64,000 bases of DNA from Eubacteriales bacterium (GCA_030537595.1 JAUNVR010000004.1:4761-68760), one strand, 5' to 3'; numbered from the stretch's first letter, positions 1,845 through 57,492 are shown. Made by a program: numbers and translations. The notes: generated by a model from the sequence alone, not told the origin.

Positions 1845-2693
1845 TTAGAAGCCCGCAGCCTTAGAGTTTCCTCCGGCTCTGTGCAGCTCGTCATGGTGGC
1901 TAATTTTACGCAGCTTACTGTAGATACTCATAATTAGCATGCCCACAACGGCATTCAGGACGATTGCACCACCCGGCTTAATTTCATAGTAGTAAGAGGT
2001 GGTAATTCCGACCATGGTATAGATAATTCCGAGCACGATTGTAATAATCATCGTCGACTTATAGCTGCGGCTGACGAAGAGCGCAGTGGCTACCGGCAAG
2101 ACAATCAAGGAGGCGACAAGGAGGGCGCCAACAATCTTACAAGCTAGGGCAATTGTGATGGCTGAAAGCAGGGTGAAAATCCCATTAACCAGCTCAACCT
2201 TGACCCCGGCAATCCGGGCTAAATTATTGTCAATCGAAATATCGAGTAAGGCACCATAGAGGAAAATCGAGCAGATCATCACAGGGAAGAATACGATAAT
2301 TACATTGCGTAAATCCGCAGTAGTAATTGACGAAATACTACCAAAAAGATAAGACTCGAAAGTGTTACCACCAGGGGCAAAGTCCGATAAAATAGCGGCT
2401 AAACCGAGGCCTGTACTCATGATTACAGCGGTGGCCATATCGCCGTAGTGAGGAAAGCGTTTACGGATAGTCTCAATCGAAAAGCCCGCCACAATACAGA
2501 CAGCAATTGCACCCAAGACCGGGTCAAAGCCGAAGATCAGGCCGAGGGCAACACCAGCTAAAGAAGTGTGTGATAAGGCATCACCGACCATTGAGGTCCG
2601 GCGGTTAACCATCACCACCCCAATTAGGGGCACCATAATTGAGAGCAAAAAGCCCGCAAGGAGGGCGCGGCGCATAAAGTCAAATTCTAACAT
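1845..2693 (-). CDS. Metal (zinc-type) ABC transporter permease, ABC-3 family (ZnuB/AdcB-like)
   Basis: The product is a polytopic membrane protein carrying the ABC-3 motif GDALSHTSLAGVA. The start is taken at MLEFDF (ATG 2693), preceded by GGGAGA. It overlaps the upstream ATPase gene by 14 nt. Confidence 0.85.
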   Translation of the reverse strand: MLEFDFMRRALLAGFLLSIMVPLIGVVMVNRRTSMVGDALSHTSLAGVALGLIFGFDPVLGAIAVCIVAGFSIETIRKRFPHYGDMATAVIMSTGLGLAAILSDFAPGGNTFESYLFGSISSITTADLRNVIIVFFPVMICSIFLYGALLDISIDNNLARIAGVKVELVNGIFTLLSAITIALACKIVGALLVASLIVLPVATALFVSRSYKSTMIITIVLGIIYTMVGITTSYYYEIKPGGAIVLNAVVGMLIMSIYSKLRKISHHDELHRAGGNSKAAGF

Positions 2694-3357
2694 TGCTAAG
2701 TCTCCCTTCCTCCATCTTATAAATCGCATCGAAGTCGAGACCCTCAGCTAGAGTCTCAATCTCATGGGTCACGATAATCGTTGTAATCCCTTCTTCGCTG
2801 TTCATGCGTTTGATTAATTTCAAAAACTGTTCCTTACTCTCCTGGTCGACACCTGCGGTGGGCTCATCTAAGACCAGAACTTTAGTCTCATTCATCATCG
2901 CCCGCGCAATCATTGTGCGCTGCTTTAAACCGCCGGAAAGCTCCTTGAATGGCACCTTTGCAAAGTGCTTCAGGCCTAGCTCGTCTAGGACCTCGAGGGC
3001 CTTCTGCTTATGGCGGCGACGCGGGATTTTCAAGAGCCCGAAATCCTCGTAGAGATTGAGCACGACCAGCTCTAGGGTTGTAGTCGGAAATGTGATTTGA
3101 TTAAAGTTTTGCACCTGTGGCACATAGCCGATATGGCGCAGAGATTTGAGCTTTCTCACCGCTTCACCGCAGATTTTAACTTCTCCAGTGTCCGGTTTCA
3201 GTTCGCCAATAATCAGTTTCATCAAAGTCGATTTGCCGGAGCCGTTTTCACCGACCACAGCAACTAAGTCACCCTTTTCTACATTAAAGTTCAAACCATC
3301 AATAACCTTATCTGCAGTGTAGGCGAAGCTTAGATTTTTAATTTCAATATCTAGCAT
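2680..3357 (-). CDS. Metal ABC transporter ATP-binding protein (ZnuC/AdcC-like)
   Basis: Readable motifs are Walker A GENGSGKST, signature LSGGLKQR and Walker B VLVLDEP. The gene lies between the SBP and permease genes. Confidence 0.9.
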   Translation of the reverse strand: MLDIEIKNLSFAYTADKVIDGLNFNVEKGDLVAVVGENGSGKSTLMKLIIGELKPDTGEVKICGEAVRKLKSLRHIGYVPQVQNFNQITFPTTTLELVVLNLYEDFGLLKIPRRRHKQKALEVLDELGLKHFAKVPFKELSGGLKQRTMIARAMMNETKVLVLDEPTAGVDQESKEQFLKLIKRMNSEEGITTIIVTHEIETLAEGLDFDAIYKMEEGRLSNVRI

Positions 3358-3376
3358 AAATTCCTCCGCTTCTTAG

Positions 3377-4684
3377 CTATTGGCCTTTACTGAGCGAGGA
3401 ATAGAGCTTTTCTAAATTCTCGCGCATGATTTCCGTATAGTTTAATTCATCAGGATTTTCAAAAATATACTCCATCGAGGTCAAAGGCACAGCCTCCCCC
3501 TTTAATTCTTCTGCCAAAGTTCTAGCACCAGCGGGGTCGTGACCCTGCTCATAAAAAACCTCTTTAATCCCGTAATTTTGGCAAAAGCCGAGCGCCCGAC
3601 GAATCGTCTTCAAGCTCGGAGTTTCGGTTGAAACTAAACCTTGGAGTGGGAATTGAATCAGGTCGAATTCCTTGGCCAAATATTCATAGGCGTAGTGTGT
3701 AACGACAAATTCACGGCGCTTTAGATCCTTGAATTTATCCTTGTATTCATATTCTAAATCAGTCAGAGCGTCGACGGCTTTCAGCTTATTGCGGCCATAA
3801 AGCCTTTTGTTTTCAGGAAAGCGTCGGACCAACTCATCATGAATTGTGTTCAGGTATTTTTTTGCGTTGCCGAGGCCAATCCAGGAATGCGGATCGTAGG
3901 TGATTTTATCAAAGCCGGAGGTGGAACCCTCGAGCAGCACCTCAATGTCCAGAGGCTCACCATTATGGTCGCAAATTGTGTAGGGGAGTAGGCGTTCGGA
4001 AACTCGGTCTGAGATAAAAAGCCATTCACCGGCTTCGGGCAGGCGATAGAAAACCTCACCAGCCTCATGTCCCATTTCAATGGCGTAGACCTGTCCTTCC
4101 TCAACCGCAATCTCACCCTCCTGCTGAATTACGGTACCCTTAGCTTCCATCTGTTTTTTGCCGCGCTCAATAGTTTTTTCAATTTTTTCATCAGGCGAGC
4201 GGCGCATGAAGCTGACGCGCATCAAGTCTTCATGGGTGTGGCCAAAGTCGATCTTATATCGTTCCTCAGGCCTGCCCTCCTGAGCTGCGAGAAATTGGAA
4301 GTCACCAATCGCAGCGGCGCCCTTATAAGTAATTAGCTCGATGAAGTCAGAGAGGACTAAGACTTCCAAGCCTGGAATTGCATCACGGACTTGATCGAGC
4401 CATTTCTCCATGTTGGCGCCATTAACAATCAAAAGGTCTGCCTCGGTCAAAGCCTTCATACTGGCCGGGGTTGGTTCCCAGAGGTGGGGATCCTTGTCGA
4501 TTGGCATTAAAGTCCGAATATCGACAGTATCACCGGCAACTTGGCGGGTTAAGTCATAAATAGGAAAAAAAGAAGTGTAAATCAAAGGCTTATCTCCCTT
4601 GACCGAAACATTGCGGCGGCAGCCTCCGCAGAGCGGAAGCATGAGGAGTATAGCCAAGACTACACCGAGAATGCGTTTTTGCAT
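3377..4684 (-). CDS. Metal (zinc-type) ABC substrate-binding lipoprotein, cluster A-I (ZnuA/AdcA-like) with a large internal insertion
   Basis: It has a lipoprotein signal (...LMLPLCGGC) and ligand motifs DKDPHLWEP, YDPHSWIG and VVTHYAYEYL. About 140 extra residues sit where ZnuA proteins carry the His-rich loop. Confidence 0.85.
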   Translation of the reverse strand: MQKRILGVVLAILLMLPLCGGCRRNVSVKGDKPLIYTSFFPIYDLTRQVAGDTVDIRTLMPIDKDPHLWEPTPASMKALTEADLLIVNGANMEKWLDQVRDAIPGLEVLVLSDFIELITYKGAAAIGDFQFLAAQEGRPEERYKIDFGHTHEDLMRVSFMRRSPDEKIEKTIERGKKQMEAKGTVIQQEGEIAVEEGQVYAIEMGHEAGEVFYRLPEAGEWLFISDRVSERLLPYTICDHNGEPLDIEVLLEGSTSGFDKITYDPHSWIGLGNAKKYLNTIHDELVRRFPENKRLYGRNKLKAVDALTDLEYEYKDKFKDLKRREFVVTHYAYEYLAKEFDLIQFPLQGLVSTETPSLKTIRRALGFCQNYGIKEVFYEQGHDPAGARTLAEELKGEAVPLTSMEYIFENPDELNYTEIMRENLEKLYSSLSKGQ

Positions 4685-4698
4685 GATATCTGCTTTCT

Positions 4699-4732
4699 GG
4701 AAAAAATGCAGGCTGCCGGAAGGCAGCCTGCA
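4699..4732 (-). terminator. Rho-independent terminator between zinT and the SBP gene
   Basis: A perfect 11-bp stem (tgcaggctgcc 4707-4717 / ggcagcctgca 4722-4732) has a GGAA loop. A T6 run follows on the minus strand (A6 at 4701-4706). Confidence 0.7.
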
Positions 4733-4744
4733 GAGTTAATGAGC

Positions 4745-5395
4745 TTACTCAGTGATCTCTTCGAGCAACTGCTGGGTGGTGGTATTCGGCTTAACAAAGG
4801 TGGGATACCAGCCTTCTTTAGCCATTAATTCATCGACATCGTCGCCGTAGCGCATGTGGAAGTGAGTCATGGATTCTTCACCGTGGACTTCCATCATCAG
4901 CAGGACCGGATACTTAGCATCGGCCTCTTTGGCCTTAAAGACGAACCATTGCAGCTCGAAGTTACCGTGCTGCACGGTGTGTGATTCAACGAATTCGTAC
5001 TCGACAGCAGAAAGCTCTTCAGCATTCTCTGCAGCCGGGAAAGCGTTTAGGAAACGAACCTTATCGCCTTCGATAATTAAGCCGTCAAATTCACAGTGGC
5101 GTTTTTCGACATAAGCGGCCTTGGCTTCTTCTGGGGTGACATTTTCGCGCTCAGCGAGGGTCACGAAGCCTTCTTGAAGCTCTTCGTCATCCAAGTAGGC
5201 GCCCATGTTATTCCATTCGCCGTCCCACTCACTCATGCTAGCCTCAGCTGGGGCTGCATCAGCGGGTTCTTCGGCAGGTGCTGCTGCCGGTGGAGCCTCA
5301 GCGCTATCCTCGGCTGGCTGCTGCTCTTCACAGGCAACTAAGAAGAGAGAGAGTACCATAAAGAGACTTAAAAGTACTGCAAGTTGTTTTTTCAT
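4745..5395 (-). CDS. zinT: ZinT/YodA-family periplasmic zinc-binding lipoprotein
   Basis: It has the lipobox LFLVAC. The blocks SEWDGEWNNM and MTHFHMRYGDD...GWYPTF match remembered E. coli ZinT blocks SDWDGVWQSV and SSHFHIFMGND...NWPTYY. An Ala/Pro/Glu-rich linker follows the lipobox. Confidence 0.85.
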   Translation of the reverse strand: MKKQLAVLLSLFMVLSLFLVACEEQQPAEDSAEAPPAAAPAEEPADAAPAEASMSEWDGEWNNMGAYLDDEELQEGFVTLAERENVTPEEAKAAYVEKRHCEFDGLIIEGDKVRFLNAFPAAENAEELSAVEYEFVESHTVQHGNFELQWFVFKAKEADAKYPVLLMMEVHGEESMTHFHMRYGDDVDELMAKEGWYPTFVKPNTTTQQLLEEITE

Positions 5396-5445
5396 TTCTA
5401 TCCTCCCGGAAATAGTGTCGAATTGCCGAGTTCCTTCAGCCCAAA

Positions 5446-5524
5446 TTAGCTAAAATCTCCCGGCAACCCAAGTTTTTTTATTTAGCTAAAACTAAACCTT
5501 CTAGAAAGGGTTAGCCTTGGCTAA
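5446..5524. promoter_or_regulatory. Three TTAGC/GCTAA palindromes upstream of zinT (candidate operator sites)
   Basis: TTAGCTAA occurs at 5446-5453. TTTAGCTAAA occurs at 5481-5490. TTAGCCTTGGCTAA occurs at 5511-5524. They lie 51-129 nt upstream of the zinT start codon. Confidence 0.3.
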
Positions 5525-5812
5525 TCAGTTGCAGTATAAGCCGAGTAGTCACGAAAGTCAATTATAAATTGCATATCATTTATTAAATTATATCTTGAAA
5601 ACTTGTTTACTTTATATAAAAGCGTTTATCAAAACTGCAAAAGAAATTAAAAAAGCCGTGACCCTGCAGTTGTCATGTTCAGGCCTGAATTGTTCGAGTA
5701 TCAGCTAGGAAAGCGAACGGAGTGCTGATATTATTTAACAATTTGGCCGCAGAGACTGCTGAGTCACGGGCTAGCATCCCCTTCCGGGAGGAGCTACTTT
5801 TTACTTTAGCGA

Positions 5813-6679
5813 CTAGGCGCTAGGTTTGGCAAATTGCCGACGATCGGACTTTACTGAGTTGCGATACTGATGGTAGGCAAAGGCAAGGACATAAACAAAA
5901 CCCATAATCGCTGCTGTTAGACCGGCTGCGTTTAGGTTGAAGTACCAGGAGAGAGCATAGCTGACACTGCCCGTTACGAGAGCGTAGAGCAATGAGTAAA
6001 CAATCGCCTGGCCCAGACTGCGCGTAAATAAGAGCGCAAAGGAGGCCGGAATAACTAAGAAGGCAATGACTAAGATGGCACCGACAATCTCGAAAGAAAC
6101 AACTGCTGAGACTGCGACCATCAAACTCAGGCCAAAGTTCAAGAGCTGATTATGGAAACCTGCCAGGGTTGCCATCAGGGGGTCAAAGCTCGAAAGCTTA
6201 AGCTCCTTGAAGAATAGTGTAATCAGGAAGATATTGAAGATTAAAACAATTGCCAATGAGACCAAGCTGCTGGGAACACTAATCCCAAAAATCTCAGTTC
6301 TAACTAAGTCGGCAAAGGTTAGATCACCCATGATGACACAATCCAAGTCGAGGTGGACATTACGTAAATAGCGGCTTAGAAGAATTACCCCGAGGGCAAA
6401 GAAGAAGGGGAAAACGATACCAATTGAGGCATCTCCCGCAATCCCGGCCTTTTGGTTCAGGTATTCAATTAAGCTGACGGTTAAAACAGAAAATACACTG
6501 GCAGTCAAAATTAGCACCGGAGAATTCAAATCCGGGGCAATGAAGAAGCCAAGCACGATACCGAGAAGTACGGTATGGGATAGGGCATCCCCGAGCATCG
6601 CCATATTTCTGAGCACCAGGAACAAACCCGGCAAGGTCAGAGCAACAGCGGCAAATAATAGAATAATTAATCCGTACAT
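5813..6679 (-). CDS. Metal ABC transporter permease, ABC-3 family (TroD/MntD-like)
   Basis: The 288-aa product is a polytopic membrane protein with the motif GDALSHTVLLGIV. It is the last gene of the SBP-ATPase-permease-permease operon. Confidence 0.85.
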   Translation of the reverse strand: MYGLIILLFAAVALTLPGLFLVLRNMAMLGDALSHTVLLGIVLGFFIAPDLNSPVLILTASVFSVLTVSLIEYLNQKAGIAGDASIGIVFPFFFALGVILLSRYLRNVHLDLDCVIMGDLTFADLVRTEIFGISVPSSLVSLAIVLIFNIFLITLFFKELKLSSFDPLMATLAGFHNQLLNFGLSLMVAVSAVVSFEIVGAILVIAFLVIPASFALLFTRSLGQAIVYSLLYALVTGSVSYALSWYFNLNAAGLTAAIMGFVYVLAFAYHQYRNSVKSDRRQFAKPSA

Positions 6680-7561
6680 CTATAACCTCCGACTCATTCG
6701 CTTTTTACGCAGTGTACTGTGAGTGCCGATAACAATTGAAACAAGTGTGATTAGCGACAGCACAAAGACAATAGAAGCTCCGTTCGGCCAACCTAATCTG
6801 CCAAGTAGCGTGCCGAGGAAGGCAGAGACTACACCTGTCACCGCAGCGACCCTTAAGACGCCGCGGAAAGAACCCTTCCATTGTAAGCCGGCGACAGTTG
6901 GCGCGATTAGTAAGGCGGCAATCAGAATTGCACCGACGACACGTAGTCCGGTTGCAATCAGCGCGAGGATTAAAATCAGCGTAATCTGATGGACTAAGTC
7001 TGGCTTGAAGCCGGTCACATCGGCGAAGCGATCATCAAAGATTGAAAGCTGAATCTCCTTATAGAAGATAAAGAAGAGAATAATCGTAAAGATCGCAACC
7101 CCGATAATCATGTACAAGTCTTTTCTGGCAGCCAGGGCAGCTTGACCGAAAATATAGGTTTCTAGTCCAGCCTTAGGCACCTGACGGTAGTGGGGGTGGC
7201 TTTGGATTACGCTCTTCAAGGTAATACCCAGGCCAAAAAATGATGATAAAACAATGGCTTGAGCACGGTCCAGGTCAGCCTTATCAGGGCCGGCCAAATA
7301 CTCGATTAAACGGTATGCAATATAGCCGAAAACCATCGCGCCGAGCATTAGAACCCAGGGAGCTCGAGTTAAAAAGAGCATAAAAGCGAGCATGACTCCG
7401 GGTAGTGAGGCGTGACCGATGGCATCACCAATTAAACTCTGTCCTCGAAGAACTGAAACTGAGCCGACCAGAGAGGTTGCCAAAGCCAAAATCATTGCCG
7501 ACAAGGCAGGAACCCAGAAGTTGATATCTCTTAACATTGCGGTCAATTCAGTTAGGTTCAT
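6680..7561 (-). CDS. Metal ABC transporter permease, ABC-3 family (TroC/MntC-like)
   Basis: The 293-aa product is a polytopic membrane protein with the motif GDAIGHASLPGVM. It abuts the next permease gene and overlaps the ATPase gene by 4 nt. Confidence 0.85.
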   Translation of the reverse strand: MNLTELTAMLRDINFWVPALSAMILALATSLVGSVSVLRGQSLIGDAIGHASLPGVMLAFMLFLTRAPWVLMLGAMVFGYIAYRLIEYLAGPDKADLDRAQAIVLSSFFGLGITLKSVIQSHPHYRQVPKAGLETYIFGQAALAARKDLYMIIGVAIFTIILFFIFYKEIQLSIFDDRFADVTGFKPDLVHQITLILILALIATGLRVVGAILIAALLIAPTVAGLQWKGSFRGVLRVAAVTGVVSAFLGTLLGRLGWPNGASIVFVLSLITLVSIVIGTHSTLRKKRMSRRL

Positions 7562-8307
7562 GACTGGGGACCTCCGTATGCGGTATTCAGGTTCTCCTTA
7601 GTTAAGGTTGTGGCCGGGTCACCGGCAGCAATTAACTTACGGTGGAGGAGAACAGCTTGGTCAAAGCGCTGATCAACTGCTTCGAGGTCGTGGTGAACGA
7701 TGACAATAGCCTTGCCTGCAGCCCGCAAATCTTCGAGAATTTCCCAGAGGATTTCTGAGGAGCGGACGTCAATGCCTTGGAAGGCCTCGTCTAGGAAGTA
7801 GTAGTCTGCTTCCTGGGCCAAGGCTCTAGCTAAGAAGGCTCTCTGCTTTTGGCCGCCGGAGAGCTCAGAAATCTGCCGATGCTTAAACTCGGTCATTTCA
7901 ACCATCTCGAGAGCTTTGGCTGCGATTTCCTTATCCTGCTTGCGGGGGCGCTTAAACCAGGACAGACGGGGGTATCTACCCATTACCGCTAATTCGCCAA
8001 CAGTCAGGGGGAAATCCCAGTTGACTTCTGACTTCTGCGGAAGGTAGGCAATTTGCCGTCTCACATTGTTTAAGGGCTCGCCATTGAATAAGACTTCACC
8101 ACTGACCAGGGGATGCAGGCCGAGCATACCTTTAAATAAGGTAGACTTACCTGCGCCGTTCGGCCCTACTAGGGCCACCATCGTCCCGGGTTCGACGTTG
8201 AACGACAAATCCTGGACGACGGGGGCCTCTTGGTAGCGCATCGTAACATTATTGACAGTGATAGCTGCCTTTTTGTCCGATAAATTATTACTTAATCTTG
8301 CATTCAT
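7558..8307 (-). CDS. Metal ABC transporter ATP-binding protein (TroB/MntB-like)
   Basis: Readable motifs are Walker A GPNGAGKST, signature LSGGQKQR and Walker B YYFLDEA. Confidence 0.9.
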   Translation of the reverse strand: MNARLSNNLSDKKAAITVNNVTMRYQEAPVVQDLSFNVEPGTMVALVGPNGAGKSTLFKGMLGLHPLVSGEVLFNGEPLNNVRRQIAYLPQKSEVNWDFPLTVGELAVMGRYPRLSWFKRPRKQDKEIAAKALEMVEMTEFKHRQISELSGGQKQRAFLARALAQEADYYFLDEAFQGIDVRSSEILWEILEDLRAAGKAIVIVHHDLEAVDQRFDQAVLLHRKLIAAGDPATTLTKENLNTAYGGPQS

Positions 8308-9269
8308 TATTTCAAATTCTCCACAATCAGGCTGACATTGTGGCGCACCATATCGATAAAATTATCTCCGGGCTCGCCAAGCGGTGCCAGTGAGTCAGAG
8401 AATAATTCTTGACCGTCACCGTGCACAACTTTAACGTCAAAACCCTTTGCTTTACAGTCTTCTCTTAATTTTTCCATTCTTGCGGGGTCGGTTGTAGACT
8501 CAGCAAAGATTGCCTTAATCTTCTTCTCAACGATTAAATTAACAGTTTCTTCAACAGCCTTACTCGAAACTTCGGAGTCGGTGCTGACGCCTTGCGGTGC
8601 CTGAACCGGCATGCCGTAGCTGCGGGAGAAGTAGTTAAATGCGTCGTGAGGTGTAATCAGGTAACGTGATTCTTCAGGAATCTTGGTCAGCTCTTCGCGG
8701 ATCCAAGCGTCAGTTTCTTTTAACTGCTCTTGGTAGGCCAAAAGATTCTTCTGAATCTCATCTTTCTCCTCAGGGAGCAATTCGCCCAGCGCTTCTGCTG
8801 CGTTCTCGCAAGCCATGCTGTAGAGGTCCAGGTTGAACCAGAAGTGAGGGTCAACGATCATTTCACCGTCCTGATCCATAATGCCAAGATCGTCCGGGGA
8901 GAAGTTCTTACTGACGGAGACACCATACTCTTCGAGGGCTTCAACCATCTTGCCTTCAAAGTGTAGGCCGTGGTAGAGAACTAGGTCAGCGTTTTTAATC
9001 TTTTTGCTGTCCTCAGGGAGAGGTTTGTAAAGGTGGGGGTCTTCACCTGCCGGAATAATCATCTGGAGGTTGACCTTATCACCGACTAAGACGGTAACCA
9101 TGTCACGTAAAAATGAGGTGGTTACGGTAACAGTTTTTTTGCTCTCATCAAGGTCAGCACTTTGTTTTAATTCACTACATGCAGTGAGGATGCTGAGCAC
9201 CATGATGACGGAGACTGCAAGGGCTAAAAATCTTGAAAATCTGCAGCCATTATTTCTTGCTTTTTTCAT
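8307..9269 (-). CDS. Metal ABC substrate-binding lipoprotein, cluster A-I (TroA-like; Mn/Zn/Fe)
   Basis: It has the lipobox ILTAC. The ligand motifs EDPHLYKP, VDPHFWFN, TPHDAFNYF and FAESTTDP give a His-His-His-Asp pattern as in TroA. The gene order A-B-C-D matches the tro operon. Confidence 0.85.
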   Translation of the reverse strand: MKKARNNGCRFSRFLALAVSVIMVLSILTACSELKQSADLDESKKTVTVTTSFLRDMVTVLVGDKVNLQMIIPAGEDPHLYKPLPEDSKKIKNADLVLYHGLHFEGKMVEALEEYGVSVSKNFSPDDLGIMDQDGEMIVDPHFWFNLDLYSMACENAAEALGELLPEEKDEIQKNLLAYQEQLKETDAWIREELTKIPEESRYLITPHDAFNYFSRSYGMPVQAPQGVSTDSEVSSKAVEETVNLIVEKKIKAIFAESTTDPARMEKLREDCKAKGFDVKVVHGDGQELFSDSLAPLGEPGDNFIDMVRHNVSLIVENLK

Positions 9270-12329: not shown

Positions 12330-13652
12330 ATGTCTCAATATGATTATGCAGGTCTAGGTTTTAGAATTGCGCAAAAGCGCAAGGCCAAGGGGCTTACTCA
12401 GGCTGAATTTGCCGAGCTCTTAGGTATCTCTGCGCAGGCTGTCTCGAAGTGGGAAACCGGAGGGGGCTATCCGGATATCAGCAGCTTGCCTGAAATCGCC
12501 ACAGTTTTAGAGCTCAGTATCGATGAACTTTTTGGCCTTAAAAAAGAGAAGCCAGAAAGTCCAGGAGAGCGCAGTCCCGGTCTACCAGAAAAAATTGATG
12601 ATATGTATTGGGTGGCGAGCTATGGGGACTATGCCTGCTACGCCTCCAAGGCAGAGTGCGAGCTGGATCTGCCGAAGATTCGCTTTAAGGATGGTTCGAC
12701 GGCCGACTTGTCAAGCAGGGTAATTATGAATCTTGGCCAAAATATAGTGATTGTAGAAAAAGATCGCTATCTCAAGGACTTTGAAGCTGCCCAAGCAAGG
12801 GCGAGTCAAGAAGAATCCGGCTCGGATGAAGAGCGAGTAGAGGAGGGGCAAAATCCGGAAAAGATAAAAGAGGCTGAAGGGCGAGAAGAGATAATCCAGA
12901 GTGCCAAAGAGGAAGACGAGAGAAGAGATAAGCTAGACTTCAAATCTTTGCGCTTGGAGTTTCTCGCTTCTAGCATAGACTTTCGCGTCATTCACGATCC
13001 TACTATGAATTATGGCTGGTATTTTGACGGTCCGGAAAATATTCGAGAGTTAATTAAATCAGAGATTATAAACAATGAGTTGATGATCAGGCTGGAGCGT
13101 CAATCGCGCTGGTCTGGGCTAAACTTCTTTATCAATTCAAAGCATTCGACTGAGGGCGAAATTTTGATTAATTGTCCTTACCCGCGAATGGAGTTTTTTG
13201 ATTTAAATCTCAGCGCAGCCTCGGATGGAAATATCGAACTGCCATTTGCTGCTGGCAAGATAGATATTAAGGGCAGCGGAGATTGTCAGTTAATGGAAAT
13301 AGAGCATTTAAAGGCTAGAGTTTTCGGAAGCGGCGATATCACTGTAAATAAAATCAAAGATCTAGACCTCTTAATAGCCGGGGTTGGTGATGTCGAGATC
13401 AAAGAGGCCAGCGAAAGTATAAAGGCTGTAATCTCTGGTGTGGGCGATATGAATTTGGCCGGGGATGTGAAATCTTGCGAGCTGCAAATTTCAGGTGTCG
13501 GTGATGTAAACGCTCGGGAACTCAGCTGTGATGAATTAAATTGCATAGTCAGTGGGCCAGGCTCTGCAGTGATTGGGCGGGTGCGTGGAGCTTCGAAAGA
13601 GCGGGCGATAATTGGCTCTTTAAAAATCCTGAAAAGGGGTTACGAAGCTTAA
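12330..13652 (+). CDS. XRE-family HTH protein with an acidic linker and a C-terminal GxGD-repeat (beta-helix, DUF2807/DUF4097-like) domain
   Basis: The N-terminus is an HTH_3 domain (KGLTQAEFAELLGISAQAVSKWETG). An Asp/Glu-rich linker follows. The C-terminus carries repeated GSGD / GVGDV / GVGDM / GPGS strands. Confidence 0.7.
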   Translation: MSQYDYAGLGFRIAQKRKAKGLTQAEFAELLGISAQAVSKWETGGGYPDISSLPEIATVLELSIDELFGLKKEKPESPGERSPGLPEKIDDMYWVASYGDYACYASKAECELDLPKIRFKDGSTADLSSRVIMNLGQNIVIVEKDRYLKDFEAAQARASQEESGSDEERVEEGQNPEKIKEAEGREEIIQSAKEEDERRDKLDFKSLRLEFLASSIDFRVIHDPTMNYGWYFDGPENIRELIKSEIINNELMIRLERQSRWSGLNFFINSKHSTEGEILINCPYPRMEFFDLNLSAASDGNIELPFAAGKIDIKGSGDCQLMEIEHLKARVFGSGDITVNKIKDLDLLIAGVGDVEIKEASESIKAVISGVGDMNLAGDVKSCELQISGVGDVNARELSCDELNCIVSGPGSAVIGRVRGASKERAIIGSLKILKRGYEA

Positions 13653-18591: not shown

Positions 18592-19881
18592 TTAATTATC
18601 CAGGGGTAGTCCCGGTGGGCGAATTAAGAGCGGAGGATTCTCTGCAGTATAGTCACAGTTGAGTAGACGCGCAGGGCAGAGAATATTCCGCCCATATTTT
18701 TCTGACAAGCTGTAGCTGATGCGGTTTAGTTTTTCTAGTTTTTCAAGCTTCTGCCAGTCTTCAAAAAAATGTTCCTGGATTGGTTGATTCGCAGCTTGGA
18801 GCTGAATGGCGCGGACGCTTAAGGCGCGCAAAGGCTTATTTTGTGGATATTTTTCCAGATATAGGGCGAAGGCGTGGCGAGCAAGATAAAGCTCAGAGCT
18901 GGCTGGATAGGGCAGGGGTTTCTGCAGCTCGACAGTATGTAGCTCAGTATCCTTCAGGCCAATTTGGATTCCCCCGGCCTTATAATTGCCTTCCTGCAAA
19001 CGGTAACTCAGCTCATGACTAAGTTTAAGTAGAACGGTAAAAACCTCCTCGGCATTTTGCAGATCTCGGCGACAGGTCAGGCCATGCCCGATGCTCTTAA
19101 CGGGGATGCTTTCACCAAAGATTCGCACGCGGCCAGAGTCTAGTCCATTGGCCCAGTCATGGAGGCGCAGCCCATTAACCCCGAGTCTTTGCCCTAAGAA
19201 GTCTCGGGGTGCACGCGCTAGGTCGCCAATCGTGAAGATGCCATACTTAGCAAGCTTACGCGTCGTTGCGGGACCAACTCCAAGCAGTTCAGAGGCCGGC
19301 CTGGGCCAAATTACACGGCGAAAATCGTGACGTCCGATGACTGTGCTCGCATCCGGTTTTTTATAGTCAGAACCGAACTTAGCAAAAACTTTATTGAAGC
19401 TGACTCCAACTGAGATACTGAGCTTCAACTCAGATTTCATCCGTGCGCGCAATTGATCGGCGATTTCGGCTCCGCTGCCAAAGAGTTTTTGACTCTCGCT
19501 GACATCTAACCAACACTCGTCTAAACCGTAGCTTTCCACTTGGTCTGAATATTCGTAGTAAATCTTGCGAGCCAAGCGAGAGTAATAGAGATATGCTTCA
19601 TAGTTCGGGGGGACGAGGATGAGATCTGGGCACTTTTGCTGGGCTTGCCAAATTGCCTCCCCAGTTTTCACTCCAGCTTGTTTTGCGGCTTCACTTTTCG
19701 CGAGGATGATGCCGTGGCGATCTTCCCGGCTTCCGGCAACTGCCATCCTGCTACCGCGGAGTTGGGGGTTTAAAATCATCTCGACAGAGGCATAGAAGGC
19801 ATTCATATCGCAATGCAAGATACTGCGCTCGCCTAAATCTGTGGCTCTGCTGGCAAAGTGCTCTGAACTTAGGGCGGACAT
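18592..19881 (-). CDS. dinB: DNA polymerase IV (Y-family)
   Basis: ILHCDMNAFYASVE and SIDE-like Y-family motifs are present. The start is taken at MSALSS (ATG 19881), 7 nt after AGGAGA. The ORF track start at 19941 is probably upstream read-through. Confidence 0.9.
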   Translation of the reverse strand: MSALSSEHFASRATDLGERSILHCDMNAFYASVEMILNPQLRGSRMAVAGSREDRHGIILAKSEAAKQAGVKTGEAIWQAQQKCPDLILVPPNYEAYLYYSRLARKIYYEYSDQVESYGLDECWLDVSESQKLFGSGAEIADQLRARMKSELKLSISVGVSFNKVFAKFGSDYKKPDASTVIGRHDFRRVIWPRPASELLGVGPATTRKLAKYGIFTIGDLARAPRDFLGQRLGVNGLRLHDWANGLDSGRVRIFGESIPVKSIGHGLTCRRDLQNAEEVFTVLLKLSHELSYRLQEGNYKAGGIQIGLKDTELHTVELQKPLPYPASSELYLARHAFALYLEKYPQNKPLRALSVRAIQLQAANQPIQEHFFEDWQKLEKLEKLNRISYSLSEKYGRNILCPARLLNCDYTAENPPLLIRPPGLPLDN

Positions 19882-19933
19882 ATCAGCTCTCCTCTCTGCT
19901 TGACAGCTAAGCTGCACTAAAGTAAGGTTGAGA

Positions 19934-19983
19934 TGAAACAACTTGCAGCTCGAGTGAAAACAGAATAGCTGAAAGTTGTTTCA
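19934..19983. promoter_or_regulatory. 16-bp inverted repeat (15/16 match, 18-nt spacer) in the dinB / xre-immA divergent intergenic region
   Basis: TGAAACAACTTGCAGC (19934-19949) faces GCTGAAAGTTGTTTCA (19968-19983). A candidate plus-strand promoter, TTGACA (19900-19905) then 17 nt then TAAGGT (19923-19928), ends just upstream. Confidence 0.45.
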
Positions 19984-20024
19984 CTGTCAAGTGAAAGTTG
20001 ATTAAGGATAGCGAGGCTTTAAAG

Positions 20025-20471
20025 ATGTTAAATAATCTTTCAAAAGAAGAGCAGATGGCTCTGGACTTCGGTTCAAAATTACGCAAATTGCGCAGAGCTC
20101 AGCAGCTCACGCAAAAGGATTTGGCCGAAAAAATAGGCGTTTCCACACGCACTGTAATCAACTATGAGCAGGGGCGCTGCTTGCCGAAGCAGGCGCAGGT
20201 TATAGGCCTACTCGCTGATGAGTTTAATGTTTCAGCAGATTATCTTTTAAGTGAGCGGCAAAATCCACCTGAGCTGGAAAGCTTCAATTGGTCCGGCGTC
20301 TATGGCAAAGCGGCGGTTGAGGAACTGGTTTCACGCCTGACCACGCTCTTTGCAGGCGGTTATCTGAACGAGAATGATCGCGATGCAGCGATGGAGGCTA
20401 TCACGCAGGCTTACTGGGAAAGTAGGCGCGCCGAGCGCAGCGATTCTGAGGAGCCCGGTCAGGAGAGTTAG
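20025..20471 (+). CDS. XRE-family HTH transcriptional regulator (ImmR/DdrO-like position)
   Basis: The HTH_3 domain reads LRKLRRAQQLTQKDLAEKIGVSTRTVINYEQG. The ATG at 20025 is preferred over the TTG at 19998. Confidence 0.8.
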   Translation: MLNNLSKEEQMALDFGSKLRKLRRAQQLTQKDLAEKIGVSTRTVINYEQGRCLPKQAQVIGLLADEFNVSADYLLSERQNPPELESFNWSGVYGKAAVEELVSRLTTLFAGGYLNENDRDAAMEAITQAYWESRRAERSDSEEPGQES

Positions 20472-20474
20472 GCC

Positions 20475-20993
20475 TTGCAAAAATACAGTTACATCATAGA
20501 TAGCTGTGCGGCCTTATGCGAGAAGCATCAGAGCAGAGACCCTCTACTTTTAGCTGAAGCGGATGGAATTCATCTTTTCCCACGCTTTGACTTTGAGCAG
20601 TTGAAGGGGATGTACATGGTGCTGAATAACTGGCGCTGTATTTTCTACAAGGCGGACTTAGCAGAGCCTCAGATTGCTGAGATTATTGCCCATGAGTTGG
20701 GTCACGATCAGCTGCATCAAGATTACATTGAGGCGGGTCGGGAGTTTATTGATCACAGCCTCTTTGATCCGCGCTCTAAATTAGAGCGTGAAGCCAATTT
20801 CTTTGCGGCCGAGTTATTGCTCACAGACCGCGAGTTCTTTGACTTAATGGAGGAGGGGGCAGCCTTGGAGTGGGCGGCTCAAACCTGTGGCTATAATCCC
20901 AATTTATTGCTCTACAAGGCTGAATTGTTACGCTCTAAGGGATACCAGCTAAGCCTGCCGTTTACGCCACGAGCAGACTTCCTGGCGACCTAA
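20475..20993 (+). CDS. ImmA/IrrE-family (COG2856) zinc metallopeptidase
   Basis: It has the HEXXH motif IAHELGHDQLH and a downstream E...FAAELL block typical of the family. The TTG start lies 3 nt after the XRE stop and is preceded by GGAGAG. Confidence 0.8.
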   Translation: MQKYSYIIDSCAALCEKHQSRDPLLLAEADGIHLFPRFDFEQLKGMYMVLNNWRCIFYKADLAEPQIAEIIAHELGHDQLHQDYIEAGREFIDHSLFDPRSKLEREANFFAAELLLTDREFFDLMEEGAALEWAAQTCGYNPNLLLYKAELLRSKGYQLSLPFTPRADFLAT

Positions 20994-21141
20994 GCCGGCC
21001 TTTTTAGACTTTCAATTATATTTTGCTGCAACAGTCTTGTAACATAGATTGCTGGTAAAGCGAGCCTAAATTTCATACAATTAGAAAACTAAAGATGGAG
21101 ACATAGGTGTTGCTATTAATTCTGTCTAATGGAGGCCTGTT

Positions 21142-24369: not shown

Positions 24370-25740
24370 CTACCCGGCGGGTGAAAAGATAGTTTCTAAT
24401 AAGCATTCGTTGGCTGGCAGGACTTGGAGTTCTGCCAGTTCTTTTTCTCTGAAGAAGCCGCCAGCGGAATGCTCGAGTAAGATGGGCTCAGTCTCTGCAC
24501 TCAAGTTTAAGCGGTAGAAAATTAAATTGACGCGCAAATCAGCGTAGTCCCAAAGTAAGAAGTAGTACGGATCTTTCCCTAATTGATCGACTGTAAGCTC
24601 GAGCCCGAGCTCTTCTTTAAGTTCACGGCAGAGGGCCTGGTCTGGAAATTCTCCAGCTTCCACCTTCCCACCTGGAAGCTCCCAGTAGCCAGCCATGAAG
24701 CTGCCCTCGGGACGTTGCCCCATAAAGAGCTGATCAGCCTTAAAGAGGCAGGCTGCGCTCACTAGAATTTCCGGAGGAGCATTGATGCTGCCAGCTTTAA
24801 ATAATTCACGCTTGCGATTGCTGCCATGGTAATCCGAGCCTCCCGTCCGGAAGAGCCTCAAAGCTAGGGCAATCAGGGAAGCGGCCTGACGAACTTCTTC
24901 TCCAGCATCACCATGCCAAACCTCTAAGCCGTCTAAGCCTGCCGCAGCTAGACTTGAGATTTTTTGCCAAGCAGAGATTGGCACAAGACCGAGCCGCGGC
25001 CCAGTAAACCAGCCATATTCGTGTGGGTGGGCGAGGACGGCTAAACCGCCAGCAGAGTGGACAGCTTTGATGGCTGCTTGAATCGTTTTTCGCTGGCGTG
25101 GGAGATAGGCTGGACGCCCCTCAAGTAAAAGCTGATTAAAGGCTTCATCGATTGAATTGAAATAGCCTTTTTGCTGCAGAACCTTGGCCATATGCACACG
25201 CCCGATAACCGCGGTCGAGCTTTGTTCAGACTTGCTATTTACTGCCTCTAATTCCTCTGCAGTAATCGCATAACCCAGGCTATTTAGCCGTTCGAGCATT
25301 CCTTGATTGCGCAGTTTGCGCTCTTTTCGCTCAGTCTCCAGATAGGCTTCGAAGCGCGCCTTTGAGGCCGCATCAAAATAGGCTAAAAGATGGACCTCCT
25401 GGCCCTTATTCTCGGCTGCGCAAGCTTCACTTTCTGGCATTAGGACACTTAACTCGACACCGTAAATTTCTGGGCCCTGATGGCCAAGATTTGCTAGGGC
25501 AGCCTGAAATTCCGCCTGCCCAGCGAGCGTATCATGGTCGGTTAAAACGACGTCACGCAAACCGCGCTCAAGTAGCTCTTGGGCTAGTTCACTAGGACTT
25601 TGGCTGCCGTCAGAAGCAGTGGAGTGTAGGTGCAAGTCGAAACAGTCTCTTTTTAAATATGCCTCGGTCCAAAAAAATTGCCGCCAGTCTGTCGCAGGAA
25701 AATCAGTTCCTAGCCCACTAGAATATCTTTTTACTGCCAT
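24370..25740 (-). CDS. Fusion protein: N-terminal PHP phosphoesterase (TrpH/YciV-like) and C-terminal Nudix (MutT-like) hydrolase
   Basis: The PHP motifs are [12 protein letters not shown] and VLTDHDT. The Nudix box is [24 protein letters not shown]. It overlaps the upstream GT2 gene by 23 nt. Confidence 0.8.
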
Positions 25741-26823: not shown

Positions 26824-28794
26824 ATGGCCCAAGTCAAGAAACAAACTGTTGATCAACTGCAGAATATTTCCGGTAAAAAAATCCTCGTTCGCGTGGACTT
26901 CAATGTGCCTAGAGATAAGGCCAGCGGAGCAATCACAGATGATCGCAGAATCCGGGCAGCCCTACCAACTATTAAAAAACTGCTCGCAGAGGATGCCAGA
27001 GTTATTCTGGTCACCCACCTCGGTCGGCCGAAAGGTTTCGATCCGGAACTTAGTACAAAGATTCTCGCAGAGCGTTTGAGTGAACTAATCGAGCGTCCTG
27101 TCCAGCATGCCGAGGATGTCATCGGCGAATCTGCTAAAGCTAAGGCAGCAGCCCTGAAAAACGGTGAGATCCTGCTCTTGGAAAACGTCCGCTACCACAA
27201 GGAAGAAACAAAGAATGATCCGGAATTTGCCAGAGAGCTGGCCTCTTTAGCTGAGCTATATGTGAACGATGCCTTCGGCACGGCCCACCGTGCTCACGCA
27301 TCCACAGAGGGGGTTGCACATTTCCTCTACCCAGTTGCCGGCTATCTGATGCAAAAAGAGATTGAGATTATGGCCGAGTCGCTTGAAGCTCCTGAGCATC
27401 CCTTTGTGGCGATTCTCGGTGGGGCAAAAGTTTCCGATAAAATTGGCGTAATCAAGAATCTCATGAAGAAAGCCGACAAAATCATCATTGGCGGTGGGAT
27501 GACCTACACCTTCCTCGCAGCCAAGGGTCTTTCAGTCGGTAAGTCACTTTGCGAAAGCGATAAGCTCGAAGAGGCTAAGGCCCTGATGGCAGAGGCTGAG
27601 CAACGCGGGGTGGAACTCATCTTCCCAGTCGATCTGCTCGGCGCTACGGAATTTGACCGTGAGGCAAAGGCTGAGAGCTTTAAAGCCGACGCAATTCCTG
27701 CTGAGATGATGGGGCTTGATCTGGGGCCAGAAACTGTAAAGCTCTTTGCTGAAGCTATAAAAGATGCTAAGACGGTGGTCTGGAACGGACCTTTAGGAGT
27801 CTTTGAATTCCCGCAGTTTGCTGAGGGTACCAATGCTGTGGCGAAGGCAATTGCCGAATCCAATGCCCGCTCGATCGTGGGTGGTGGTGACTTGGCTGCG
27901 GCGATTGAAAACTCAGGCTATGCAGAGCAATTTACGCACATCTCAACTGGGGGTGGCGCATCCCTGGAGTTGTTAGAGGGTAAAAACTTACCTGGCCTGG
28001 CAGCTCTCTTACCGGCACACGGCAGAAGGAATATCCCCGCCGGTAACTGGAAGATGAACAAGCAGCTTCCCGCAGAGGCCAAGAGCTTCTTTGCTGAATT
28101 TATTGAGGCGCTTGATGAAAGTCCCGAGCGGATTATCTTTAACGTACCCTACACCGTCCTCAGCACGGCTCTCGAGGCGACAGCCTACAGCCGGATCTTT
28201 ATCGGTGCAGAAAATGGCCATGCTGCTGATAACGGCGCTTACACCGGCGAGATTTCACTGCGGGCCCTGGCGGAAATGGGCGTACCTTATGTCGTCCTCG
28301 GGCACTCTGAGCGGCGGCAGTATTTTGGTGAAAGCTCAGAGCTGGTGAACGAAAAAGTACTAGCAGCTTTAAATTGGGGTCGCTTCCCAATTATGTGCTG
28401 TGGTGAAACTTTAGCAGAACGAGAAGCTGATGCCACACTCGAAGTTATTAAGGAGCAGGTCTTGACTGGCCTGGAAGCTGTAAAGGCTGATGATTTCTGG
28501 CGCATTGCTATTGCCTATGAACCAATCTGGGCAATTGGTACTGGCAGAACTGCAAGTAGTGAACAGGCCGAGGAGGTTTGTCGCTATATCCGTGAACTGA
28601 TTGCTGAAGAGTTTTCCCAGGTCGCGGCTGAACAGCTCGTCATCCTCTACGGTGGCTCGGTTAAGCCGGACAATGCCGCTGAGCTCTTTGCCATGCCGAA
28701 TATTGACGGCGGCTTAGTTGGCGGAGCAAGTCTCAAAGCTGAAGATTTTGCAAAGATTTCTGGAGCCTCTGCAGCAGCTGAGCAAAAGCAATAA
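26824..28794 (+). CDS. pgk/tpiA: Bifunctional phosphoglycerate kinase / triosephosphate isomerase (in-frame fusion)
   Basis: Residues 1-395 are PGK (VRVDFNVP, FGTAHRAHAS, STGGGASLE). From about residue 405 the sequence is TIM (AGNWKMN, LGHSERR, AYEPIWAIGTG). There is no stop or frame change across 28000-28050. Confidence 0.9.
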   Translation: MAQVKKQTVDQLQNISGKKILVRVDFNVPRDKASGAITDDRRIRAALPTIKKLLAEDARVILVTHLGRPKGFDPELSTKILAERLSELIERPVQHAEDVIGESAKAKAAALKNGEILLLENVRYHKEETKNDPEFARELASLAELYVNDAFGTAHRAHASTEGVAHFLYPVAGYLMQKEIEIMAESLEAPEHPFVAILGGAKVSDKIGVIKNLMKKADKIIIGGGMTYTFLAAKGLSVGKSLCESDKLEEAKALMAEAEQRGVELIFPVDLLGATEFDREAKAESFKADAIPAEMMGLDLGPETVKLFAEAIKDAKTVVWNGPLGVFEFPQFAEGTNAVAKAIAESNARSIVGGGDLAAAIENSGYAEQFTHISTGGGASLELLEGKNLPGLAALLPAHGRRNIPAGNWKMNKQLPAEAKSFFAEFIEALDESPERIIFNVPYTVLSTALEATAYSRIFIGAENGHAADNGAYTGEISLRALAEMGVPYVVLGHSERRQYFGESSELVNEKVLAALNWGRFPIMCCGETLAEREADATLEVIKEQVLTGLEAVKADDFWRIAIAYEPIWAIGTGRTASSEQAEEVCRYIRELIAEEFSQVAAEQLVILYGGSVKPDNAAELFAMPNIDGGLVGGASLKAEDFAKISGASAAAEQKQ

Positions 28795-56770: not shown

Positions 56771-57492
56771 GAAGCATAGTAGTTCTAACGGAGGATCGCT
56801 CTTCGGTGCCGACCTTGGAACGCATCTTTGAGCTTATTCTCGCCGAAACTAAGCTGGCCTGTAATTTAGAAATCTACTTCCACCGGGGTAGGGGGCATTT
56901 ACCGAAGAATTTAGCAGCAAGTCCGAATCCTCGGGCAAGCTCTCTCTTACAAGTCTTCCCGGCCAAATTAAGAGCCTATGCAGCAGCGACTGAGCCGGAG
57001 GAAGTACTGCTGGTCGTCGTGCTCGATTCTGATGACTCAGATGTCGACGTGCTTTACGGTCGCCTGGTTGAGTGCTACCGGCGCTTTGCCCCGCGGCACG
57101 TCTACTGTATCGGGATTGCAGTTGAAGAGTTCGAGGCCTGGCTTTTAGGCGACATCGAGGCTTTAAGCCGAGCTTATCCTGATTACAATAAGGAAGCATA
57201 TGCTAGCTACGAGCAGGATGCCATCGTAGGCACCTGGGAAATTCTAGCCAAGGTAGTTCATGCTGCTGGTGCTGACCGCCTAATCCGCAATGCCTACCCG
57301 GCAGTCGGAGCCTATAAAATGCGCTGGGCAGAAAATATATCCCCATTTTTAGAATTAGATAGCAACCGTTCAGAGAGCTTTAAGCGTTTTATTCAACATA
57401 TTCGCCGCAGCCTAGTTTTTTGGACTGAGCGAATTGAGGCGGCAGGAGAAGTCCCAGGAAACTTTCCCTCCGAGGAGGAGGGGGAGAGTTAA
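56767..57492 (+). CDS. Toprim-like / DUF4276-like protein, second gene of the two-gene module
   Basis: It has an ATGA overlap with the ATPase gene. It carries SIVVLTEDRS, an acidic cluster VVVLDSDDSDVD, and EEFEAWLLGD (the EAW motif I recall for DUF4276). The length is 241 aa. Confidence 0.6.
   Translation: MRSIVVLTEDRSSVPTLERIFELILAETKLACNLEIYFHRGRGHLPKNLAASPNPRASSLLQVFPAKLRAYAAATEPEEVLLVVVLDSDDSDVDVLYGRLVECYRRFAPRHVYCIGIAVEEFEAWLLGDIEALSRAYPDYNKEAYASYEQDAIVGTWEILAKVVHAAGADRLIRNAYPAVGAYKMRWAENISPFLELDSNRSESFKRFIQHIRRSLVFWTERIEAAGEVPGNFPSEEEGES

Follow-up and report, generated by a model that had tools for sequence, protein, structure and literature searches.

The 64,000-nucleotide stretch JAUNVR010000004.1:4761-68760 (assembly GCA_030537595.1), hereafter called the window, comes from a gut Clostridia-type bacterium and carries a three-gene module that recurs in many related species: a dinB gene for a Y-family DNA polymerase and, divergent from it, an operon of two genes encoding an XRE-family protein (xre) and an M78 metallopeptidase. 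We propose, with a probability of roughly 60%, that this is a chromosomally resident, self-contained module in which an ImmR-type XRE repressor and an ImmA-type zinc metallopeptidase control the adjacent dinB and their own operon. The proposal builds on the gene content and protein families of the locus, its synteny in relatives, its promoter and operator architecture, the confinement of the operator to this locus within the 64 kb, and covariation of the operators with the recognition helix of the repressor. An initial annotation of the window had described dinB as divergent from a two-gene XRE/M78 operon, which coordinates and Pfam and NCBIfam matches confirm. It had also taken the pair for a resident regulator rather than a mobile immunity module, a view that gains support from conserved synteny, from 64 kb without mobile genes and from an operator system overlapping the dinB promoter. 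The features of the locus are as follows.

18592-19881, minus strand: dinB, Y-family DNA polymerase (Pol IV-like), 429 aa from the likely start ATG 19881 (Pfam, NCBIfam, PHROG)
19900-19928, plus strand: predicted promoter P(xre), -35 TTGACA (19900-19905), 17-nt spacer, -10 TAAGGT (19923-19928), rightward to xre-M78; score 9/12
19934-19947, no strand: candidate operator O1, TGAAA-CAAC-TTGCA, between both -10 boxes, within the first transcribed stretch from either promoter
19962-19990, minus strand: predicted sigma-70 promoter P(dinB), -35 TTGACA (19990-19985), 17-nt spacer, -10 TATTCT (19967-19962), leftward to dinB; score 10/12
19970-19983, no strand: candidate operator O2, TGAAA-GTTG-TTTCA, occupying the -35/-10 spacer of P(dinB)
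19992-20005, no strand: weak operator-like site O3, TGAAA-GTTG-ATTAA, in the 5' leader of xre, immediately beyond the -35 of P(dinB)
20025-20471, plus strand: xre, XRE/ImmR-family repressor, 148 aa; N-terminal helix-turn-helix (HTH) with recognition helix S40-TRTVINYE, C-terminal two-helix domain with LFAGG
20349-20354, plus strand: codons of F109-A110, the predicted scissile bond (alignment with ImmR F95|M96 and model)
20475-20993, plus strand: ImmA-type M78 metallopeptidase, 172 aa, single domain; HEXXH (H73, E74, H77) at 20691-20705
20982-21008, plus strand: terminator-like hairpin with a T-run behind it, where the xre-M78 operon ends

Predicted Promoters and Operators Between dinB and xre

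P(dinB) and P(xre) face each other in the window, with 33 bp between their -10 boxes. The initial annotation had reported a 16-bp inverted repeat in this region; a repeat does exist, although its description has to be corrected. The arms are 17 nt long (19934-19950 and 19967-19983, 94% complementary) and lie 16 nt apart, and each arm is a 14-bp dyad of its own, TGAAACAACTTGCA and TGAAAGTTGTTTCA. A reading of the repeat as a single long hairpin or terminator was rejected, since orthologues keep the 14-bp dyads individually at a variable spacing of 25-36 bp. A search for further copies over the 64 kb returned the pattern TGMAA-N4-TTKCA at two sites, both of them in this intergenic region, where 0.56 were expected over the whole window. 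The block formed by O2 and the -35 of P(dinB) is the best conserved part of the intergenic DNA among the window and two orthologous loci (L004 and L006).

The core GAAC-N4-GTTC of the LexA (Cheo) box of Firmicutes (full box CGAAC-N4-GTTCG) is missing from the entire 64 kb, as the initial annotation had stated for the region between the genes. The intergenic region has no match even with one mismatch allowed, and the same holds for the clade of the window. That annotation also called the switch LexA-independent; the term can be kept in a local sense, for a locus that appears to be without a LexA box.

The Polymerase, the Repressor and the Peptidase

The open frame at 18592-19941 (minus strand) contains ILHCDMNAFYASVE, and ATG 19881 was chosen as the start on account of the GGAG-type ribosome-binding site ahead of it. 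DinB matches the Pfam families IMS (1e-42) and IMS_C (6e-15) and PHROG 1268, DNA polymerase (9e-71). Its best NCBIfam models are all DNA polymerase IV, yet the match stays under the equivalog cut-offs (309.6 vs 381 bits). DinB has the IMS catalytic core, the little-finger domain and the catalytic Asp and Glu of a Pol IV; the latter are found in the translation in the motifs D(MNAFYASVE) and (L)DE(CWLD).

The XRE protein is identical to an NCBI-annotated protein of 148 aa (P0079) and matches HTH_3 (2.7e-10); Pfam finds only HTH families in it and no S24 peptidase domain. A word-based single-sequence search gave five proteins, and a profile search extended the family to roughly 400 members. The top PDB match of the family profile is the DNA-binding domain of ImmR (7t8i, 2.9e-13), followed by the full-length repressor of phage phi106 (9sf2, 7.8e-13), with the alignment reaching residue 132. 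DdrO entries rank below ImmR and match through the HTH alone (residues 8-75, 4e-9 to 1e-7). When the profile was aligned with ImmR by hhalign (98.4% probability, E 4e-15, 113 columns), ImmR F95|M96, the bond that ImmA cleaves (PMC6868357), fell on F109|A110 of the window protein. These residues belong to LFAGG, the most conserved stretch among 67 members of the XRE family, in which F109, A110, G111 and G112 show little or no variation. The AlphaFold model (pLDDT, predicted local distance difference test, 78) has a helix of residues 94-110 that ends at F109-A110 and is followed by a loop (111-115) and a further helix (116-141). The ImmR cleavage site has been described in the same way, at the end of a helix and ahead of the loop to the last helix. 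F109|A110 is thus the predicted scissile bond, and the C-terminal helix is probably needed for repressor dimerisation. A structure search with the model returned mainly generic HTH domains, and the C-terminal domain had no decisive fold match.

The M78 gene starts at TTG 20475 on the same strand, 3 nt past the xre stop codon, and its product contains IAHELGHDQLH; the 3-nt distance and the motif are as first annotated. The protein matches Peptidase_M78 (2e-11), is 100% identical to an NCBI protein (P0001) and, with its single domain of 172 aa, is without a GAF domain, as is ImmA. H73, E74, H77, E104 and E106 are invariant across 25 homologues. The AlphaFold model (pLDDT 86.5) has IrrE/PprI as its best PDB folds (E 3e-4, template-modelling score 0.56-0.58); it aligns only to the peptidase part of IrrE/PprI, over about 155 columns of chains with 240-250 modelled residues. 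By sequence, the match to IrrE (3dte) is weak (9e-3) and covers residues 31-126. The best PDB sequence match of the M78 profile is CapP (7t5t, 3e-5), and the PADLOC models capP (2.4e-10) and capH (1e-8) also match. Judged on sequence, the XRE/M78 pair belongs to the ImmR/ImmA family of ICEBs1, an integrative and conjugative element (ICE), and of phages phi105/phi106.

Orthologous Loci in the Closest Relatives

The closest M78 relatives, from four lineages, are 59-62% identical and lie on contigs of up to 518 kb. All four keep dinB, xre and M78 with the same chromosomal genes around them. The arrangement in L004-L007 is that of the window, with dinB divergent from xre-M78, CitF (citrate lyase) and MgtE at one end and NlpC/P60, VanW, PHP-NUDIX, GT2 and PGK-TIM at the other. 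The dyads are retained in intergenic DNA that has otherwise diverged among these relatives, namely CTGCAAGTACTTGCAG and CTGCAATATATTGCAG in L004 and TGCAACTACTTGCA in L006. P(xre) has orthologous positions in L004, L006 and L001.

A rearranged form is found in L001-L003, where an inversion of dinB has given all three genes the same direction, and where TrkA and TrkH are inserted downstream. In L001 the dyad TGCAACGAGTTGCA lies at position 4154 ahead of dinB, downstream of a TTGACA-17-TATTCT promoter that has the hexamers of P(dinB) in the window, and a second dyad, TGAAACCAATTGCA, lies at 5498 ahead of xre. The inversion is a natural experiment: parted from xre, dinB kept a promoter together with an operator.

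Distribution of the Module and Its Common Plan

A wider scan with the M78 alignment against one genome per species returned 80 further loci. Their hosts are mostly Clostridia metagenome-assembled genomes, with some Erysipelotrichaceae, Tissierellia/Peptoniphilaceae and Gemella and one ‘Fusobacteria’ metagenome-assembled genome. Cultured hosts include Helcococcus massiliensis (L056), Ruminococcus sp. zg-924 (L082) and Intestinimonas massiliensis (L052). Gene calls in the fetched loci are crude longest-open-reading-frame calls, and some operators were assigned by eye. According to tblastn, a homologue of the XRE protein (residues 13-131, C-terminal domain included) lies just upstream of M78 in most of the 80 loci. 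A Y-family polymerase is present within about 5 kb in 34 of 83 loci, and a divergent dinB as in the window in about 24.

The divergent loci share an intergenic plan. On the dinB side, a TTGACA-17-TATAAT promoter fires toward xre and is followed by an operator; on the xre side, a consensus promoter is directed at dinB, an operator occupies its spacer, and often a further one lies just outside its -35. In 21 of 24 non-redundant divergent loci, both face-to-face promoters reach scores of 10/12 or more, where 0.13 would be expected from resampled sequence; the equivalent of P(dinB) reaches such a score in 23 of 24. The -10 boxes usually lie 20-34 bp apart. Sites similar to O3, on the xre-proximal side, were read by eye in L004, L012, L013, L019, L049, L054 and L082. 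In 11 of 12 loci checked, the operator pattern of the locus itself is confined to the promoter regions; L019 has one extra match elsewhere. The 143 neighbours of 22 divergent loci fall into 178 different Pfam families, with an integrase family in 2 of the 143. Because these neighbours are varied housekeeping genes, the three-gene unit behaves as a self-contained cassette in varied chromosomal settings.

In several other loci, a distant Y-family polymerase (UmuC-like, with IMS and IMS_C) lies downstream of M78 in the operon, directly after M78 in L038 and L060, and the next gene encodes a small protein with the YolD-like motif RAKxFxPFAAL. This second layout, xre, M78, distant polymerase and YolD-like protein, is seen in L038:6542-8352, L058:7225-9116 and L060:6638-8723, and in L067:3623-5400 polymerase and small protein are upstream of xre on the opposite strand. 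The two layouts, DinB-like and UmuC-like, indicate that the same switch is attached to two different kinds of translesion polymerase.

Further small proteins recur near these loci. An about 86-aa protein ending in a conserved Trp adjoins dinB in nine related loci and is missing in the window. Members of this family, ending in ..RWFVEAK, follow dinB or are themselves divergent from xre (L013:3940-4197, L066:3644-3958, L075:3720-3980, L079:3721-3981, L073:3718-3963 and L087:5041-5301). The family probably corresponds to the ImuB-C domain that Aravind et al. (2013) described in stand-alone form, a name that we use tentatively. In a Pfam scan of the recurrent small neighbours the about 86-aa cluster had no significant family, and the putative YolD-like cluster reached only E = 0.035, so that its name is tentative as well. 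In Helcococcus massiliensis (L056:1464-3864) two tandem dinB paralogues, 48% and 42% identical to DinB of the window, are divergent from a single xre-M78. L073:2763-3020 (minus strand) and its equivalent in L081 encode an 85-aa stand-alone LexA N-terminal DNA-binding domain without the S24 peptidase domain, 42% identical to residues 3-66 of Bacillus subtilis LexA, which could act as a non-cleavable LexA mimic. Its gene adjoins a 185-aa gene, an ImuB-C-like gene and dinB.

Other M78 loci contain large serine recombinases, tyrosine integrases or a recurrent gene of about 190 aa. The latter gene is divergent from xre in L034, L044, L061, L025, L041, L050, L065 and L024; several of these loci have a small sigma-70 region-4 protein and some a DinG-like helicase or a tyrosine integrase. 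They are probably a mobile-element form of the same switch. M78 matches phrog_87 and has homologues in Clostridia phages at 30-35% identity. In a neighbour-joining tree of XRE and M78, polymerase-linked pairs are scattered among mobile-type pairs; monophyly of the polymerase-linked pairs, and with it a single domestication, is unsupported.

Operator Variety and the Recognition Helix

The operators differ by lineage. The pattern is TGCAA/TGAAA-N4-TTGCA in the clade of the window, TGAAC-N4-TTTCA in L026, CGAAC-N4-TTTCG in L054 and L080, CGAAA-N4-TTGCG in L082, with three or four copies, and CACAT-N4-ATGTG in L019. Such diversity is consistent with a fast-evolving local repressor and would not be expected if a conserved global repressor, LexA for example, bound these sites. 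In the recognition helix RTvI45NYE, the residue that corresponds to I45 of the window protein covaries with the operator half-site. CG[AC]A pentamers upstream have a mean of 5.9 in 31 Gln loci and of 2.1 in 18 Ile loci (Mann–Whitney p = 4e-6), and TG[AC]A has a mean of 7.7 in the Ile loci versus 4.2 in the Gln loci (p = 1e-4), with Ile, Leu and Val pooled against Gln in both tests. The XRE protein is accordingly the predicted binder of the operators.

In Gln-type XRE lineages the operators are CGAAC-N4-TTTCG or CGAAA-N4-GTTCG, one mismatch from the Cheo box of Firmicutes. Such Cheo-like operators lie upstream of xre in L054:4855-4928, L080:5524-5598, L026:5489-5530, L075:5330-5466, L052 and L058. 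Cross-talk of the cassette repressor with LexA is conceivable in these lineages.

Proposed Mechanism and Alternative Explanations

In the mechanism that we propose, repressor dimers would bind the 14-bp dyads O1 and O2, and O3 weakly. With O2 in the spacer of P(dinB) and O1 just downstream of both promoters, bound repressor would shut off dinB and autoregulate xre-M78. A stress signal, most likely DNA damage perceived via RecA or single-stranded DNA (ssDNA) by analogy with ImmA, CapP and IrrE, would then cause the peptidase to cut the repressor at F109|A110. The cut would detach the C-terminal helix, both promoters would open and Pol IV would be made, until fresh repressor resets the switch. 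In B. subtilis, activation of ImmA is RecA-dependent and ImmA/ImmR is stimulated by RecA or RapI; ImmA/ImmR, CapP/CapH (through ssDNA) and IrrE/DdrO all respond to DNA damage. Repressor binding and the position of the cut are predicted on the model of these systems.

Several points weigh against this mechanism. The M78 protein is without the GAF domain by which CapP and PprI/IrrE are proposed to sense ssDNA, and damage induction and cleavage are argued by analogy. The -10 of P(xre) is weak in the window (TAAGGT), and O1 and O3 are imperfect dyads. The covariation statistics ignore kinship, yet both residue states occur in several separate branches of the tree. In the ImmR sequence used for the hhalign comparison, confirmation by PDB 7t8i extends over residues 1-64 only; for residues 65-127, the support lies in a length and an F95/M96 position that fit the literature. 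Within the subfamily, copies from phages and ICEs are intermingled with the others, and a few polymerase-linked copies lie beside recombinases (L015, L073). Lastly, Rir/Crh is a precedent for a COG2856 partner that acts without detectable repressor cleavage (PMC6868357).

The pair could be a decayed phage or ICE immunity module, with dinB a mere neighbour or former cargo that it does not regulate. The phage members of the M78 subfamily and its phrog_87 match, the related loci with serine recombinases or tyrosine integrases, the interleaving of polymerase-linked and mobile copies in the tree and the joint presence of dinB and recombinases in L015 and L073/L081 all fit this explanation. It does not account for operators that overlap the dinB promoter across divergent loci, for face-to-face promoters in 21 of 24 of them, or for the operator that is still ahead of dinB after the inversion in L001; together with the conserved chromosomal flanks, the 64 kb without mobile genes and the heterogeneous housekeeping neighbours of 22 loci, this makes it unlikely. 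The module is best seen as a domesticated immunity switch from a subfamily that also serves phages and ICEs. A different possibility, in which dinB would still be derepressed, is that M78 acts as a stoichiometric anti-repressor, blocking oligomerisation and so inactivating the repressor without proteolysis, in the manner of Rir on Crh of phage TP-J34 (PMC6868357); related phi106-type repressors are under small anti-repressors, according to the titles of PDB 9sf2 and 9iaq. HEXXH and the downstream ExE are invariant in 25 of 25 homologues, however, and conservation in the repressor family is highest at the residues that the alignment places on the ImmR scissile bond, and we regard a purely non-proteolytic mode of action as improbable.

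LexA occurs in most Clostridia, and dinB could still be under LexA (SOS) or under joint control by LexA and XRE; with LexA alone, XRE would autoregulate only its own operon. Operators one mismatch from the Cheo core in L026, L054/L080 and L075 would agree with this. In the window, by contrast, neither the core over 64 kb nor a one-mismatch match between the genes was found, and the pattern of its clade is without the critical C and G positions. The operator, moreover, varies by locus and covaries with the XRE helix, as a conserved LexA would not produce, so that LexA control seems very unlikely here. There is even less reason to think of the pair as a type II toxin–antitoxin system without a role at dinB, an idea that goes back to the prediction of COG2856/XRE pairs as toxin–antitoxin-like (Makarova, 2009; PMC2701414) and to one pair studied as such in Brucella (PMC10538038), and to which weak NCBIfam matches to antitoxin families could be added. 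It leaves unexplained why the pair is repeatedly linked to two kinds of Y-family polymerase and why promoters and operators follow a shared layout, and the repressor is homologous to ImmR across the cleavage region; we hold it to be highly improbable.

Control of dinB by an ImmR/ImmA-type switch remains our preferred explanation. A broader and rather doubtful extension of it is that a phage- or ICE-derived ImmR/ImmA switch was repeatedly domesticated in Clostridia and neighbouring Firmicutes as a portable, LexA-independent ‘mini-SOS’ cassette, which would silence error-prone polymerases (DinB-like, or UmuC-like with a YolD-like or ImuB-C-like partner) until DNA damage occurs. In some lineages its operators would have converged on the Cheo box (CGAAC-N4-TTTCG), where cassette repressor and LexA could compete or co-occupy.

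Error-prone polymerases are behind mutagenesis under stress and, with it, the evolution of antibiotic resistance; their silencing is known mainly for LexA, HdiR and UmuDAb. If our proposal is true, a two-protein zinc-protease switch derived from mobile elements would be a third, mechanistically distinct solution for the control of translesion synthesis, operating in many gut and rumen Clostridia, most of them uncultured. The small ImmA-type peptidases, a large and mostly unstudied family, would gain a simple chromosomal read-out of one promoter and one polymerase, which could show how peptidases without a GAF domain sense damage. The covariation of operator and recognition helix would offer a ready-made specificity code.

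The Module Within the 64-kb Window

The neighbours of the module are MgtE, a histidine kinase with a response regulator, an NlpC/P60-SH3 protein and a VanW-G5 protein, which agrees with the two-component system and cell-wall proteins named in the initial annotation. Pfam scans of the remaining long open reading frames of the window (at least 110 aa) gave housekeeping families only, including two zinc-uptake ABC systems, citrate lyase, MgtE, a two-component system, NlpC/P60, VanW, a PHP-NUDIX fusion, PGK-TIM, PFOR, DnaD/DnaI-like loaders, the Rnf complex, tRNA synthetases and hrcA-grpE-dnaK. The scans found no integrase, recombinase, phage gene, lexA or recA among these reading frames of the 64-kb window, in line with the earlier statement that the flanks are free of integrases, recombinases and phage genes. 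A tblastn search of the window with LexA of B. subtilis and Escherichia coli gave no match either. The window has four tRNA genes, each at least 6 kb from the module.

Two adjacent ZnuABC-type zinc uptake systems and a ZinT-like protein (1845-9269, minus strand) lie about 10 kb from the metallopeptidase switch, which is probably a coincidence; activation of IrrE by zinc availability has been proposed (PMC7907104). A 456-aa fusion of a PHP phosphoesterase and a MutT-like NUDIX domain (24370-25740, minus strand) occupies the corresponding place near dinB in L004 and L006 and may be repair-related; two cell-wall genes separate it from the module. Phosphoglycerate kinase and triose-phosphate isomerase are fused in a 656-aa reading frame (26824-28794, plus strand), and this fusion is kept in L004 and L006. 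A second XRE-HTH protein, fused to DUF2807 (adhesin-head-like), is encoded at 12330-13652 (plus strand) next to a tRNA-Val gene and appears unrelated to the dinB module. At 55586-57492 (plus strand), two paired genes for an AAA_21 ATPase and a DUF4276 protein match HEC-01, a candidate defence system in PADLOC (HEC-01A 1.5e-52, HEC-01B 2.6e-60), and are flanked by an SPFH/NfeD pair and a radical-SAM gene.

Comparison With Known Systems

The initial annotation had likened the pair to both ImmR/ImmA and DdrO/IrrE, and of these the ImmR/ImmA type stands; the pair does not appear to be orthologous to IrrE/DdrO. ImmR/ImmA of B. subtilis ICEBs1 and the c-phi105/phi106 repressors with their ImmA homologues likewise consist of an XRE protein followed by a small single-domain M78 peptidase in one operon. 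ImmR/ImmA also has shared control of divergent promoters with autoregulation, which is predicted here, and its F|M bond aligns with the invariant F|A. Unlike ICEBs1, the window module lies off any mobile element, without int/xis or the integrase-adjacent location that is a feature of the family; its divergent target is a translesion polymerase instead of excision and transfer genes, and the operators differ.

DdrO/IrrE (PprI) of Deinococcus is also a chromosomal XRE and M78 pair, which induces DNA-repair genes independently of LexA, and IrrE is the closest fold of the peptidase. IrrE, however, has additional HTH-like and GAF-like domains (about 280-300 aa), its gene is unlinked to that of its partner, and the regulon comprises about 20 genes addressed through the radiation/desiccation response motif, whereas the peptidase here has 172 aa, is linked to its repressor and has an apparently local regulon. 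Orthology with DdrO/IrrE was rejected on domain architecture and match ranking. CapH/CapP, from cyclic-oligonucleotide-based anti-phage signalling systems (CBASS) and other defence operons, is likewise an XRE and M78 pair that represses a neighbouring non-mobile operon, is derepressed by DNA damage and is cut after Phe (F82|R83). CapP carries a GAF domain, is activated by ssDNA and has an immune system as its target, while the window peptidase has neither a GAF domain nor an adjacent defence operon; only the peptidase and HTH cores match, and orthology with CapH/CapP was not upheld.

Reviews describe COG2856/XRE pairs mostly as regulators of mobile elements or of defence. A linkage between DUF955 and DinB was mentioned in one sentence and a network figure by Aravind et al. 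(2013). That account reports the same gene linkage, but without the XRE partner, operators, promoter architecture, an ImmR-type cleavage site or experiments, and the stand-alone ImuB-C that it describes has no similar gene at the window locus. In the literature we found no account of ImmA/ImmR-type control of a Y-family polymerase, or of the operators or promoter layout. Firmicutes dinB genes under LexA control have a Cheo box in the promoter, which the dinB promoter of the window is without. The only dedicated local repressors of error-prone polymerases known from the literature are S24 autopeptidases, HdiR next to umuC in Streptococcaceae and UmuDAb in Acinetobacter, which likewise place a phage-derived repressor beside an error-prone polymerase in a minimal SOS-like circuit (PMC8565304). 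HdiR and UmuDAb are serine autopeptidases triggered by activated RecA (RecA*), whereas the XRE protein of the window has no peptidase domain of its own and is accompanied by a separate zinc metallopeptidase instead.

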